Positions 2,348 to 56,075 of a DNA stretch of 64,000 bases are shown here, in pieces (the first letter of the stretch is position 1; every line of letters begins with the position of its first letter). The DNA is from Eledone cirrhosa (Eukaryota): assembly GCA_964016885.1 (NCBI GenBank), contig OZ024760.1:31248001-31312000 (forward strand). Reading direction: 5' to 3'. Position numbers and translations under genes: made by a program. The notes below the pieces were generated by a model that did not search any database, had not been told where the DNA came from, and saw only the letters and a list, made by a program, of their open reading frames with translations.

Positions 2348-2940
2348 TTCCAACTTGTGTGCTCCTTCTTCACATTTTATTATTATATATATATGCACCT
2401 ATATATATATATATATATATATATATATATATATATATATATATATATATATATATATATATATATATATATATATATATATATACATATATATATATAC
2501 ACACATATATATATATATATAATCATCATCATCTTCGTTTAACGTCCATTTTCCACGCTAGCATGGGTTATACATACATACATATTACATATATATATAT
2601 ATATATACATACGTACATATATATATATATACATATATATATACATATATATATATATATACATGTACATATATATATAAATATATATATATATGCATAT
2701 ATATATATATATATAGATGTTGAGAGTGAGAGTGGAAAGTGGGGGTGGGGGAGACCAATGCCATCCAATAGAATGACACCAGAAGTGGAACTAATCTAAC
2801 TTTAGAAGAAATATCAATGAAACACACACACACACACATATATATATATATGTAAGTATTCTAATTATATATATATATATATATATATATATATATATAC
2901 GATATTAAACAAATGGAAACTATATTTATAAAACCATATT

Positions 2941-3006
2941 TATTTCATTATACATATTTCAGGGATACCATATTAAAAATATGGCATGCCTTCTTCAGAT
3001 AAAATA
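2941..3006 (-). ncRNA. Type I hammerhead ribozyme motif (mirror copy of 3158-3223)
   Basis: Exact reverse complement within the palindrome. Confidence 0.78.
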
Positions 3007-3157
3007 CAATATATAAGCAGTTTTATAAATAAATTTGACGTACCATAAAATATTGATCAACTTCCATTTAAAAAACTACCAAACCAACTTTTTTAAATGG
3101 AAGTTGATCAATATTTTATGGTACGTCAAATTTATTTATAAAACTGCTTATATATTG

Positions 3158-3223
3158 TATTTTATCTGAAGAAGGCATGCCATATTTTTAATATGGTATC
3201 CCTGAAATATGTATAATGAAATA
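3158..3223 (+). ncRNA. Type I hammerhead ribozyme motif (family A)
   Basis: tattttat-CTGAAGA-stem II aggcatgccatatt/aatatggtatccct-GAAA-tatgt-ATA-atgaaata; 8-bp stem I; predicted cleavage after 3215. Confidence 0.8.
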
Positions 3224-3353
3224 AATATGGTTTTATAAATATAGTTTCCATTTGTTTAATATCGTATATCTACTCCAAAACTTGTTGAGTGCTTTATATC
3301 AGTTATAAAAATATTTGCTTGTTGTATCCCAATAATTTAAATAGAACTTCTAC

Positions 3354-3742
3354 ATATATATATATATATATATATATATATATACATATGTATATATATA
3401 TATGTATATATATATATGTATATATATATATATATATATGTATATATATATATATATATATATATATATATATATATATATATATATATATATATATACA
3501 TATGTATATATATATATATGTATATATATATATATGTATATATATATATATATATATGTATATATATATATATATATATATATATATATATATATATATA
3601 TATATACATATGTATATATATATATGTATATATATATATGTATATATATATATATATATATATATGTATATATATATATATATATATATATATATATATA
3701 TATATATATATATATATATATATATATACATATGTATATATA
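3354..3742. repeat. (TA)n/(TATG) microsatellite; many similar tracts across the window
   Basis: Direct reading. Confidence 0.95.
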
Positions 3743-4087
3743 TCATCATCATCATCATCATCATCGTTTAACGTCCACCTTCCACGCTTGCATGGGTTTG
3801 GGCGGGAGTTTTCCCACTTGAGGCAAGATTGGTTGTCCTGCTCGCATAGGACTGTCTGGCGGGTTTTCTATGGCTGGATGCCCTTCCTAACACCATCCAC
3901 ATTTACAGTGTGTACTGGGAGGTTTTTACCGTGTTACCTACACGGCCACATTACAGCGTGGACTGTGTGTTTTTTTGTCGTGACACCTACACGACCTCAT
4001 TTGTTTAGGACTGGATGTTGTGGTACCAACATAACTTTACATTGAAAGGTGTGGTGTGGATGGGGTGGGGGTAGTGGTACGGGGGTG
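3743..4087 (-). mobile_element. RTE 3' UTR fragment with (GAT)n tail
   Basis: Same family as 1960-2347 and 27750-28360. Confidence 0.8.
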
Positions 4088-51970: not shown

Positions 51971-52074
51971 TTATATATATATATATATATATATATATAT
52001 ATATATATATATATATATATATATAAATAAAATAACAGGAGGCTGGACTGATGTAAATCCTTGAAAGGTTTATT

Positions 52075-52132
52075 ATACTATGATCATTTCAATGACCAGG
52101 TTCCATATGAATCCGGTGATATCATCAGGTAT
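52075..52132 (-). ncRNA. Type I hammerhead ribozyme motif
   Basis: atac-CTGATGA-long stem II-GAAA-tgatc-ATA-gtat; stem III is the palindrome atgatcat; AATAAA follows directly. Confidence 0.7.
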
Positions 52133-52857
52133 TCGAAATATAACAAAGGAATATGTAAAAAACCATGGGTCCGAAAAATCAGAGAGGACGACTGACCAAC
52201 TATCTGCTTTCACCTCGGCCAGTCGCCCTCAAAGTGATGGCCACTCAGTCTACTAATGACCATCTGGTGAGGGGGCGAAGGCTTATAATGCACTACCACC
52301 TCTCCGTCAAAGAATAAAAAAGGGGAGGAAAGAAAGGAAGAAAGAAAAAAAAGAAAGAAGTCAGCGTAAGGGTCACACCACAGTCATGCTAGAAAACGCC
52401 GCGAAAAATGTTATTCCAAAGAATCTATATTTTAACAAAGGCATATATAATGGTCTAATGTGTGAACAGAAAATTGGAACGTTAAACTTATGTTACGAGT
52501 TATAGGATAAAATTAAATTAAAAAATAATAAATTTAAAAATAAATTTAAAAAATTAAAAAATTATTAGAAAATTAAAGGTTAAGGTAGCGAAATTTATTT
52601 AATGAACTTACAGAGAGAGTCTTATATGAAAAAGTTAATCTCGATAAGATATCAGGGTGGGATATAGAGTAAAGATTAAAGCCTTCGATTGTGAATCCCA
52701 GCCAGCACCTCCTAACCACGTGTCAGCCAGTTTCGAGTGGTAGCGTCCAGCGAAAGAAATGGAAATTAATTTTTCCGAGTACTCTAGGAACGTAGCTACC
52801 TTAGGCTCCGGGTGTGCTAGCGGGAAGTCTACAATTTCTACAGGCCATCGTCTATAC

Positions 52858-55257
52858 CACAGGTTCTCAACCCATTTAGGCCAAACGCCCCCTTTTGTCC
52901 CTTGAAATCACGAAACGCCCCCCCCCCCCCCCCCCACCCTATTTTTCCATTTTTCAATATACTACTGATTTTGATATCAGTAGATTACTAAAAAATTGAT
53001 TAACTATATTCAGGCAGCTGAGAGTATAAATACATTCCTTGAAAGAAAATATATAAATTTCAAAAAAAGGAACATAAATGTTCTTTTTATGAATAAGGAC
53101 CAGTTGAATTTGTTATATTCCCACCAGGCGATACCAGCTATTTTGAACATTTATATAAGAGCAACTCTGTCTATCCCAAGAGTGCTCTTATCTGGAAGAA
53201 AGTGGCAATTATATCATTTCAAAGCTTTCCAATTTTCCCTTTAATGAAACAAATGTTGATATCAAACTTGATGTCCCCCTGCTTTGTGAGCTTAGAGACC
53301 ATGGAAGAGGGTTTCATGACCACGCGGGAGGGTATATTTATTAATAAATGGTAAAATATATACAACAAATGAGTAATTGAATTGTAGTAGATGGTTTCCA
53401 GTCCAGTCAGACTGCAACTACAAATAAAAAAATTGTTAGTTTGCTTTGTAACAATAGCATATCCAAGTTTTCGTATAAATCAACTTAATTTAACTTTGAC
53501 TCATTTCAATTGGACCCTTGAGCTTCATGGAGTCTAGCTAACTCTTTGACGTGAGGCTGAATTTTCTTAAGATGTAGCCAGAGATCTCCACGTGTAATTA
53601 CATTGTAGCGGTTGCGAGCCTTACTGTGTAGTCTGGAATCAACACAAAACCTCCTCTCGACTAAGTATGAGCTTGGAAAAGGCAGAGCAAATCTCTTAGT
53701 CTCTGCATGTAGGTGTGGAAATCAACGCTGAATTTCCTCTTGCATCCCAAAAAGGGGTTCACCTATTTTGGGAAATCTAATTTTGATCATGTCATCTGCT
53801 TGAAGTTCAATGAATTCTTCCTGAAATTTAACGTCCAAATCGTCGACGTTAACTATGAAAGCATCTGCTATCCACATTGGGATGTCCATCGGCAAAAGGT
53901 CGACAAACCGTTCTCTCATGTTGTCTTGTAGCGCACGGAGCTGAGTGGTATAAATTTGGAGTTGGTCATCGCTTACAATGTTTTGAACATTGGCGACACT
54001 AGGAAAATTATAGAATTCCCGTCAACAAAGATTCCTTTCGATGACATTCAATTTGGCCAGGAATGTTTTCACAGCATTCCTTGCTTTAAGCAAGGTGATC
54101 CCCTGCAAAGCCAAAATGACGCTATTGCATTTGTCGAAGATGTTGGTGAGGTAGGCGCAGTCTTGCCTCACATCGAGGGTTTTCTTGTACAGTTCTGTGT
54201 TGCGTCCTCGCAGAAATTCAACGATAGAATCGAAGAGTTCAAAGAAGTGAGTAAAGCACTTGCCCTTTGAAAGCCACCTCACTTCAGTATGAAGGAGCAA
54301 CTTGATGAATTCTTCGTCATTATCTTGGCACAGTTGCTGTAAAATTCGTTCATTGAGGGAATCAGTTTGATAAAATTAATGATATCAATGGCCACCTGCA
54401 AGGACTTGTTCATAGGCTTGCTGCATTTCTTCGCAGCCAAGTGTTGTCGATGAATGACACAATGAACAGCAAATACAGGTAGATTTTCTCTCTTCAGAAG
54501 AGTGACGAAGCCCTTATGTTGGCCGGCCATTGCTCCTGCGTTGTCCGTAGCACATGAAACAATGTGTGTTGTATATGGTCCTAGATGTATGTATTACCTG
54601 CCGGTGTGTTGTATGTAGTCCTAGATGTATGTATTACCTGCTTATGTATTGCATGTGGTCCCAGCTGTATGTATTACCTGCTTGTGTGTTGTATGTCGTC
54701 CTAGATGTGTGTATTACCTCCTTATGTGTTGTATATGGTCCTAGATGTATGTATTACCTGATTGTGTTGTATGTGGTCCTAGATGTTTGTATTACCTGCT
54801 TATGTGTTGTATGTGGTCCTAGATGTGTGTGCTACCCGCTTCTGTGTTTTCTTTTTTTTATTTTTATTTGTAATATTATTTATACAATAGGGAATAAAAT
54901 AGATCTACATAGTGTTAACTCGTTACGGTTGAGTCAATAATTTCAGACATGAAATACATTGTTATCGGTGAAGGAAAGATAAGATTCTAACTGGCTGCGC
55001 CCAAAGTGCCCTTTGACCCAGATGACTGAGTTTTTCATTTTTAGGATCTCAATTACCGGTTAATGTCTAGACACGCCTGCACACCTGCGGTCAGACTATA
55101 GTTATGCAGTCTGCAAGCTCATTCAAATGCACTCACACTGGCTGTCTCAAAGAATACAAATATGGCTTATAATACTTACCAAAGTAAAGTGTCTTCCAGC
55201 GCCCCCTAGCCTCAAACGCCCCCTGGGGGTGCATATGCCCCCCATTGAGAACCTTTG
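52858..55257 (-). mobile_element. hAT (Buster/Charlie-type) transposon, degenerate, with internal minisatellite of about 41 bp (54560-54835)
   Basis: 8-bp TSD gtctatac (52850-52857, 55258-55265); TIRs cacaggttctcaa / ttgagaacctttg; VHCVIHRQHL and LLHTEVRWLSKG. Confidence 0.92.
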
Positions 55258-55688
55258 GTCTATACCAAACGAATACTATTAATTCACACATGAGGGGTTT
55301 ATTTACGTGCCAGTAGGGGCATGATACAGCTAACAGTTATGCCTAAGCCTGGAGTTTATAGGTATAAGTATAATATGGCGGTCCAAACAGGCGGCGCGGC
55401 GGGCCCGGGGCAAAGCAAGCCGTTCCGAGTAATTTCGTTTACCGAAAGAGGGGAAATTTATTTTTCCAAGCACATAATTAACTCCGTATTCGCACCACCA
55501 ACTACACAAACGAAGACGGGTGAACTGCACTACGTTGAGTACTCTCCACAATATTACACCAAGATTGACCATACGGAATGACCAATTCTATCCAGTGGTG
55601 AACCAACCTAAAGAAATATATATATATATATATATATATATATATATATATATATGTATGTGTGTGTGTGTGTGTGTGTGTGTATATA

Positions 55689-56075
55689 TGTAGAAGTTCT
55701 ATTTAATTTGTTGGGATACAAGCAAATATTTTTATAACTGATATAAAGCACTCAACAAATAATTGGAGTAAAAATACGATATTAACAAATGGAAACTATA
55801 TTTATAAAACCATATTTATTTCATTATACATATTTCAAGGACACCAAGTTAAATTATGGTGTGCTTTCATCAGATAAAATATAATATAGCTCCCGGGAGC
55901 TTCCAACAGTAATGGTCGCATTCTTTAAGGGTATGTCAATATTTATTTATAAAACTGATCTATATTATATTTTATCTGATGAAAGCACACCATAATTTAA
56001 CTTGGTGTCCTTGAAATATGTATAATGAAATAAATATGGTTTTATAAATATAGTTTCCATTTGTTAATATCGTAT
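55689..56075 (-). mobile_element. Family A fold-back insertion
   Basis: Arms 55774-55889 and 55960-56075; tail 55689-55773 homologous to 3270-3353. Confidence 0.78.
55968..56032 (+). ncRNA. Type I hammerhead motif (family A); mirror copy at 55817-55881 on -
   Basis: tattttat-CTGATGA-aagcacacca..tggtgtcctt-GAAA-tatgt-ATA-atgaaata. Confidence 0.8.

Follow-up and report, generated by a model that had tools for sequence, protein, structure and literature searches.

Palindrome-plus-tail insertions in (TA)n runs of Eledone cirrhosa: very probable 5'-truncated 3' ends of Penelope-like elements

A 64,000-nucleotide (nt) stretch of the genome of Eledone cirrhosa (GenBank assembly GCA_964016885.1, contig OZ024760.1, positions 31,248,001 to 31,312,000 of the forward strand; hereafter the window, in whose own numbering all coordinates are given) contains short palindromic insertions that lie in (TA)n runs and carry a single unpaired tail. 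With a probability of about 0.95, these palindromes are the 3' ends, truncated on the 5' side, of Penelope-like elements (PLEs) belonging to at least six families. The evidence establishes PLE identity for families A, B and D, makes it likely for C and G, and is weaker for E. The palindrome-plus-tail layout is itself of a known PLE kind and would not surprise a PLE specialist, as an inverted truncated copy, a one-sided tail and a preference for (TA)n have already been described for PLEs (PMC8557442). Departures from the usual PLE layout are the long tails, a motif at the internal end and the compact set of products.

A first-pass annotation of the window had listed nine such insertions. Local alignment confirmed the inverted repeats for all nine at the coordinates it gave, with arms of 46-1327 nt, as claimed, and spacers of 4-107 nt. 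A self-BLAST census of the window yielded 29 local inverted-repeat axes, compared with none in each of 10 block-shuffled windows. Near-perfect palindromes (spacer <110 nt) accounted for 13 axes, and by our reading of the census ten of these fit the plan, namely the nine listed insertions and palindrome G. Those at 37239, 49930 and 56479 do not count as members, having neither tail nor hammerhead nor TA run at the arm ends. An element-based search of the window added two palindromes (C5 and G), which brought the total to 11; together with a hammerhead search it also added eight solo pieces (C4, A3, the family B relic, D3, the bare family A tail, F1, F2 and H). The members are as follows (strand in brackets).

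A1, 2899..3353: tail-less arm 2899-3075 (-), spacer 13 nt, tailed arm 3089-3265 (+), tail 3266-3353; each arm has a complete type I hammerhead, core 3166-3215 (+).
C4, 4208..4345 (+): solo family C arm and tail without inverted partner; its 5' end coincides with the apex point of C1-C3.
D3, 15481..15547 (+): solo tail-less family D arm with complete hammerhead; its 3' end is the point at which the D2 tail-less arm ends.
B, 24131..26953: tail-less arm 24131-25453 (-), spacer 107 nt, tailed arm 25561-26893 (+), tail 26894-26953. The spacer belongs to the coding sequence of the tailed arm and is in frame with it; the hammerhead core is at 24311-24277 (-), the plus copy having one core substitution.
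Open 3' part of the B open reading frame (ORF), 24517..25453 (-): end of the reverse transcriptase (RT) palm, thumb, C-x4-C-x2-C-x7-C linker, GIY-YIG with CCHH; the plus copy of the ORF has two frameshifts.
Bare family A tail, 26986..27072 (-): solo, flanked by two TA runs; its 5' end and the fixed tail-less end of A1/A2 are at most about 3 nt apart.
Family B relic, 27091..27220 (-): diverged 3' end and tail, 5' boundary approximate.
D1, 27373..27561: tail-less arm 27373-27428 (-), tailed arm 27429-27478 (+), tail to 27561; only in the tail-less arm does hammerhead stem I have its 5' strand.
C1, 28600..28782: tail-less arm 28600-28642 (-), spacer 17 nt, tailed arm 28660-28702 (+), tail to 28782; the hammerhead is represented by its 3' half only.
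D2, 28891..29088: tail-less arm 28891-28952 (-), spacer 5 nt, tailed arm 28958-29019 (+), tail to 29088, followed by (TC)n(TA)n; in the hammerhead, C3 is replaced by A.
A3, 31310..31535 (+): diverged solo family A arm and tail, 5' boundary approximate; it adjoins the same TA run as the tail of C2.
C2, 31550..31738: tail 31550-31628 (-), tailed arm 31629-31681 (-), 4-nt loop, tail-less arm 31686-31738 (+).
C5, 34757..34923: diverged family C palindrome with the tail on the left, outside the original list; the tail-less arm has an internal deletion and the same 3' end as other family C copies.
C3, 38357..38545: tail-less arm 38357-38408 (-), 4-nt loop, tailed arm 38413-38464 (+), tail to 38545.
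E, 38567..39187: tail-less arm 38567-38847 (-), spacer 19 nt, tailed arm 38867-39147 (+), tail 40 nt.
G, 50757..50961: tail 50757-50821 (-), tailed arm 50822-50862 (-), tail-less arm 50863-50961 (+) with a degenerate hammerhead; outside the original list, left TA flank short.
H, 52026..52138 (-): solo hammerhead-bearing 3' end adjoining a TA run.
A2, 55690..56072: tail 55690-55775 (-), tailed arm 55776-55892 (-), 64-nt spacer, tail-less arm 55957-56072 (+), to which the spacer belongs; the junction has a perfect U-turn palindrome of 14 nt.
F1, 58299..58460 (+): solo 3' end with complete hammerhead.
F2, 59965..60128 (-): second family F copy, 86% identical to F1 and ending at the same point in (TA)n.

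A short family F fragment at 58624-58672 (-) starts near the predicted hammerhead cut, and its 3' end has diverged from those of F1 and F2.

Element B was said to encode RT and GIY-YIG. The GIY-YIG part of this statement holds: an endonuclease (EN) with CCHH (VVY..C..C..HIGET..R..EH..H) lies 3' of RT in one ORF. The RT is not whole. The best long homologue of the B protein is an RT-domain protein of Octopus vulgaris (60% identity over 74% of the query), and as the match begins at residue 531, past the homologue's YVDD, B is a dead 3' stub. The YxDD catalytic core, cut off in B by 5' truncation, was present in all eight longer homologues inspected. A homologue search returned 2873 representatives at E up to 0.001, and Atlas neighbours of the protein carry HTH_animal and GIY-YIG. 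RT similarity in other searches was limited to a weak RVT_1 Pfam match in one of nine homologues and one weak RT match (E 0.045) among solved structures. The zinc-linker pattern C-x4-C-x2-C-x7-C occurred in 35 of 60 proteins scanned, with a spacer of 6-8. B's linker fits the CX2-5CxxC pattern of Nematis and Neptune and is short like that of Nematis, unlike that of Neptune; its spacing is the short one of the Nematis rows in Fig. S2 of PMC8557442. A tblastn search with 17 homologues found no other PLE coding relics in the window.

B resembles the C-terminal EN-bearing (EN+) PLEs of PMC8557442 in having RT, zinc linker, GIY-YIG with CCHH and a 3' hammerhead, and the window elements resemble them in 5' truncation, an inverted copy at the 5' end, a one-sided tail and a microsatellite bias. 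Judged by the sequence features tested, B belongs to the C-terminal EN+ PLEs, and its short linker is of Nematis type. Unlike nematode Nematis (DKG/DKR, YKTHK, GLAMG), B relatives carry DKS, LRKDHK and GG[AP]IG, and neither GGAIG nor GGPIG is present in the supplement text of PMC8557442. The B tail is 60 nt long, compared with 30-40 in C-terminal EN+ PLEs. Of the Naiad and Hydra PLEs, among them the Octopus families of PMC8557442, Naiad differs in its N-terminal EN and in having no canonical hammerhead, Hydra in the absence of CCHH, a CxCX5C linker and DKT, where B has CCHH and CxxC and its relatives DKS. The supplement of PMC8557442 contains none of six motifs of 11-15 nt drawn from these families (A, C, D, E, G and the C/D tail).

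Hammerhead motifs link the non-coding families to PLEs. A type I hammerhead descriptor gave eight matches with a stem I of at least 5 bp, compared with a mean of 0.075 in 40 shuffles. In the six motifs of A, F and H, 94% of cells pair and both partners change in 10 of 20 pairs, a level reached in none of 500 shuffles, although the structure was drawn from the same sequences and is for that reason favoured over slid controls. The motif is complete in A, B and D (also in F and H) and degenerate in G, whose core is one nt short. C has the 3' half only because the apex cuts the motif off, and the predicted 5' half was not found in the window. A purpose-built covariance model recovered the A, F and H training motifs and their partners, matched D1 and D2 weakly (E ~0.4), and found nothing in C, E or G. 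Type I hammerheads near the 3' ends of A, B, D, F and H are predicted ribozymes. Such motifs sit in PLE terminal regions (PMC4209133). The first-pass annotation had tied the small families to PLEs through the longest element; the link is firmer than that, because hammerheads occur in those families themselves. By hammerhead and layout, A and D are PLE ends, and C and G probably are too. E has no ORF and no canonical hammerhead by descriptor and covariance model, only a lone CUGAUGA near its 3' end with GAAA upstream; its layout suggests that it is PLE-like, and with this half core it could be a Naiad end.

The claim of (TA)n at both ends held for 16 of the 18 ends of the listed insertions (at least 10 of 12 nt in TA alternation; background 0.041), in a test that is partly circular because the first-pass annotation had selected TA-flanked cases. 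The exceptions are the tail of the insertion at 28890, which reaches (TC)n first, and that at 55689, which reaches (TA)3(CA)n. Of 61 TA blocks in the window, which has 40% GC and many microsatellites and retroelement relics, 25 adjoin such ends, and several TA runs each adjoin two insertions.

All arms are arranged head-to-head, with the element 3' ends toward the TA runs. Every palindrome (11/11) has exactly one tail, and none has flush ends; if each arm picked its end freely, the chance of this pattern would be at most 0.5^11. In every family there are two fixed points at which the 3' side can end, one at the end of the tail and one at an internal site that lies 40-88 nt upstream. Tail length, counted from the tail-less end, had been put at 37-85 nt and is 40-88 nt: 60-88 nt in A, B, C, D and G (69 nt in D2) and 40 nt in E. 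Published PLE tails are typically 30-40 bp (PMC8557442), a typical figure and not a strict criterion, matched by E alone. The internal end is common to A1 and A2 (2/2), as had been noted. For family C, ttccta had been reported in three copies, a slight overstatement: C1, C2 and C5 end at TTCC/TA, but C3 ends one base off, at TTTC/ATA. In family D the end of D2 equals that of the solo arm D3, but D1 ends about 12 nt earlier. TA alternation of at least 3 nt was found at the internal site in five of seven family-level junctions (P ~1e-5); the microhomology postulated earlier is therefore present, but resolution of a second end there is just one possible reading of it.

A motif, ACTC...GAGT with its halves 11-17 nt apart, begins 5-9 nt past the internal site in A, C and G. 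D2 has it with one change and D1 has it exact but further out; it is absent from the tails of B and E. When all 4-mers were tested, it was found in four of six families with D1 as the family D representative (0/5000 shuffles as good) and in three of six with D2 (p 0.003). The families, previously called unrelated, are not wholly so, as four of them have this tail motif in common. Their relatedness rests on motifs, because pairwise DNA similarity was not significant: among the 28 pairs of eight families, two (A-H and C-D) reached p 0.008, which is not significant after multiple testing.

Ownership of the spacer was assessed in ten palindromes, with C5 omitted for its deletion and the spacers of A1 and E assigned to neither arm. 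The tail-less arm has extra 5' sequence in three: A2 (about +64 nt, homologous to A1/A3), G (+58) and D1 (+6), the latter two extras each completing the hammerhead. In five others it is the tailed arm that extends further, by 107 nt in frame in B and, less securely, by 3-13 nt in C1, C2, C3 and D2. Spacers are at most 19 nt long in seven of the nine listed insertions, independent of arm length. Candidate marks of snap-back at the junctions are the 14-nt U-turn in A2 and a 4-nt overlap in G. Apexes lie within the hammerhead or at most 7 nt from it in C1-C3, C5, D1, D2 and G, 16-82 nt upstream of it in A and more than 1 kb upstream in B; this does not establish structure-driven stopping, because a preference for products of about 50-60 nt would look alike. 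The tailed arm of G starts at most 4 nt from the predicted hammerhead cut, whereas its partner arm spans the whole motif; in this single case the start could reflect run-off on cleaved RNA.

How such products might arise is suggested by a two-primer model, to which we give even odds. Both ends of the cut target would prime reverse transcription, one at the tail end and one at the internal site, and one complementary DNA (cDNA) would snap back to form the apex. The GIY-YIG endonuclease would cut both strands of the self-complementary (TA)n. One freed 3' end would prime at the end of the RNA tail and the other at the fixed internal site 40-88 nt upstream, with TA pairing over 3-5 nt as an aid; in A, C, D and G the conserved ACUC...GAGU element just downstream would position this internal start. 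One cDNA would stop early, snap back on itself and make a plus strand, which would pair with the other cDNA; fill-in would then give a palindrome with a small loop and one tail. Failing snap-back, single pieces would result: an arm that keeps its tail (C4, A3), one that lacks it (D3), or the tail by itself (26986). One priming event per site would thus produce the fixed ends and the single tail, and one cDNA snapping back the small loop; if either cDNA can snap back, both spacer polarities would follow. D3, which uses the internal end without a partner, was counted for this model, and together with the three palindromes with a longer tail-less arm it fits priming better than passive resolution. 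The model resembles twin priming of L1; the papers that a literature search returned for twin priming with Penelope were not on this topic, judged by title.

A precedent for two start sites exists in a PLE of an anole, which nicks and extends both target strands and begins reverse transcription at two sites bounding the tail, with uncleaved RNA as the main template (PMC11167929). As in this Poseidon element of Anolis carolinensis, the tails in the window are bounded by two fixed ends in an AT-rich target, and the arms of A, B, C and D pass the predicted cut site, as expected of a template left uncut at the hammerhead. The window is without the N-terminal region that forms the predicted dimer contact in PMC11167929, and inverted or palindromic products are not discussed in the excerpts consulted of that source.

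A more far-reaching proposal, which we consider distinctly doubtful, is that the window samples a PLE lineage with tails of 65-88 nt, a common ACUC...GAGU cis-element that would set the internal start of reverse transcription, obligate two-primer paired insertions closed by snap-back, an attraction of apexes to the hammerhead (C1-C3, C5, D1, D2, G) and some families (C) that would be fixed-length mini-PLEs moved in trans in the manner of short interspersed elements. No paper describing such a long-tail, shared-motif two-primer lineage was found in the open-licence literature, Repbase and subscription journals being outside the search.

The following points weigh against the PLE interpretation or the two-primer model: (i) Pfam searches with four B ORFs returned no RT or GIY-YIG family; (ii) no full-length parents of A, C, D, E or G were seen in the window; (iii) the Rfam scan gave no hammerhead among the 150 of 218 matches listed, these being sub-threshold matches of microRNA type on repeats and hairpins; (iv) ACTC...GAGT is weak by a single-8-mer test, in which 19 and 16 of 400 null sets were as good (p 0.04-0.05), and its pairing shows no covariation; (v) tails fold with z < -1.9 in two of seven cases and are no more stable than shuffles in the other five; (vi) junction microhomology at most apexes is no more than a candidate feature; (vii) extra 5' sequence on the tail-less arm could stem from later deletion near the apex; (viii) the two-start-site precedent is an analogy from another PLE clade, whose tail is 30-40 bp and whose priming site is non-homologous to the target (PMC11167929), unlike the TA microhomology seen here; and (ix) the sample is one 64-kb window with 11 palindrome events.

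The main rival, held tentatively and following the resolution idea of the first-pass annotation, has a single priming event at the tail end, fold-back of the cDNA, a copy that ends or is cut at a fixed TA-like site, and joining by TA microhomology. It is close to the 'EN-mediated resolution' of PMC8557442 and to the self-priming of PMC3846280. It accounts for one tail per palindrome and small spacers, for TA microhomology at the tail-less end and for a solo tail beginning at the internal site, and the loops of C1-C3 resemble the tailed-arm sequence of C4. However, later deletions are required for A2, G and D1, in which it is the tail-less arm that extends further on the 5' side, and loss of a whole arm for D3; moreover, the tail-less end corresponds to an RT start site in another PLE in vitro (PMC11167929).

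We consider it improbable that the short families are non-autonomous and arose by complete copying of short masters, possibly palindromic ones already, with ends and apexes inherited. Family C fits this best, as all five copies including the solo C4 start within a few nt of one point, and C2 and C3 have equal arm length and a 4-nt loop. F1 and F2 also have both boundaries in common, approximately, and non-autonomous PLE derivatives with hammerheads have been reported (10.64898/2026.07.22.740005). Yet apexes differ between A1 and A2 and between D1 and D2, copy-specific variants are present in both arms of that copy, and a long natural stem II, as in F1, would set the C apex without a palindromic master. 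The origin of the first palindrome would also be left unexplained. For family C, copying from masters can hold alongside the two-primer model.

Fold-back DNA transposons or miniature inverted-repeat transposable elements (MITEs) targeting TA would likewise be short and non-coding, with long inverted repeats and TA flanks, and E, without ORF or canonical hammerhead, looks the part. They are very unlikely as an explanation, since no palindrome has flush ends, arm length differs between copies of a family, the position of the apex is variable in A and D, some arms and one tail occur alone, the hammerheads show covariation and B encodes a PLE protein; for A, B and D this origin is already contradicted. 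A sequencing or assembly fold-back artefact, against which the first-pass annotation had asked for a check, is hardly credible: the arms of A1 and D2 are identical over 177 and 62 nt, but eight of ten arm pairs differ (substitution divergence 0-7.7%), mirroring halts at the element ends and leaves the flanks past the TA runs unmirrored in all six cases tested, element ends recur between copies, and both orientations occur.

Other systems provide further parallels to the PLE ends described here. Penelope elements of Adineta vaga form head-to-head inverted pseudo-long terminal repeats (pLTRs) with junction palindromes and an optional tail, for which self-priming was proposed (PMC3846280). Those copies are few and have target-site duplications, whereas the copies in the window are dense, short and placed in (TA)n, which hides duplications. 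In Schistosoma, pairs of hammerheads lie on opposite strands 100-700 bp apart (PMC4209133), and inverted pLTRs and 3' extensions are routine features in curation (PMC8969392). Of the (TA)n-targeted, hairpin-making retrotransposition route proposed earlier for the window, the PLE origin, the targeting and the routine hairpins stand, but the route is not new, being already in PMC8557442. Like non-LTR retrozymes, the window families are short and non-coding, with a type I hammerhead, and derive from PLE terminal regions; unlike these, which form head-to-tail tandem repeats with hammerheads (10.64898/2026.07.22.740005), they form no tandem arrays, and neither such arrays nor direct pLTRs of these families were found in the window. 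A recent repeat annotation of Octopus vulgaris lists Penelope-like and MITE families; 'palindrom' is absent from its main text, and the passages found there on Penelope-like families give no description of this layout (PMC13282606).

Further features were observed in the window. Likely host-gene exons at 18762-34614 (+) surround the densest cluster of insertions, including a frame at 29175-29828 that resembles a coiled coil and another at 34330-34611, for which the nearest Atlas clusters have a GRIP domain (score 0.88, a lead only); PLE stubs between these exons would be intronic. The palindrome at 56479-56682 has 93-bp arms, a 17-nt spacer and a 7-8-nt direct repeat on both sides, without tail or TA flank, and is like a fold-back DNA transposon with target-site duplication. 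That at 37239-37553 has 153-bp arms, a 9-nt spacer and a piece of dispersed repeat near the apex, and no tail, hammerhead or TA flank. Inverted repeats of about 250 bp with internal 34-nt tandem units enclose 665 nt of GC-richer sequence at 42503-43663, probably a non-autonomous DNA transposon. Directly beside G and adjoining a TA array, inverted ends at 49890-50756 flank an ISXO2-like DDE transposase fragment (PF12762, E 3.5e-7), an element that we take to be Merlin-like. Two GC-rich non-LTR retrotransposon relics with RVT_1 matches lie at 46429-49023 (+) and 61163-63959 (-); the region downstream in both is presumably a restriction-like endonuclease. A TA-embedded motif with GTAGTACAC / GTGTACTAC occurs in both orientations and in small palindromic arrays (41201-41270, 46210-46376, 49793-49904, 56083), and a repeat starting with (CAT)n directly after TA runs is present in many copies (2043-4046, 20990, 22754, 58547 and others). 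RT-bearing fragments of long interspersed elements, e.g. at 22776-23585 and 35218-35769, also lie at TA arrays. Long minisatellites at 8472-10439, 10880-12654 and 32305-33673 have periods of 48, 30-31 and 19 nt, and the 48-nt array keeps open frames on both strands.

The origin of inverted copies and tails in PLEs is an open question (PMC8557442), and the later steps of insertion are unvalidated in the only in vitro system (PMC11167929). The dense, short and fully assembled palindromic insertions described here constitute a ready data set for the mechanism of PLEs, in which tail symmetry, spacer polarity and solo-tail boundaries can be counted to separate two-primer from single-primer models without bench work. 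To automatic annotation, such stubs resemble MITEs or unknown repeats. If the proposed long-tail two-primer lineage is real, ends of this kind would be a major source of hairpin DNA, and possibly of double-stranded RNA, genome-wide.

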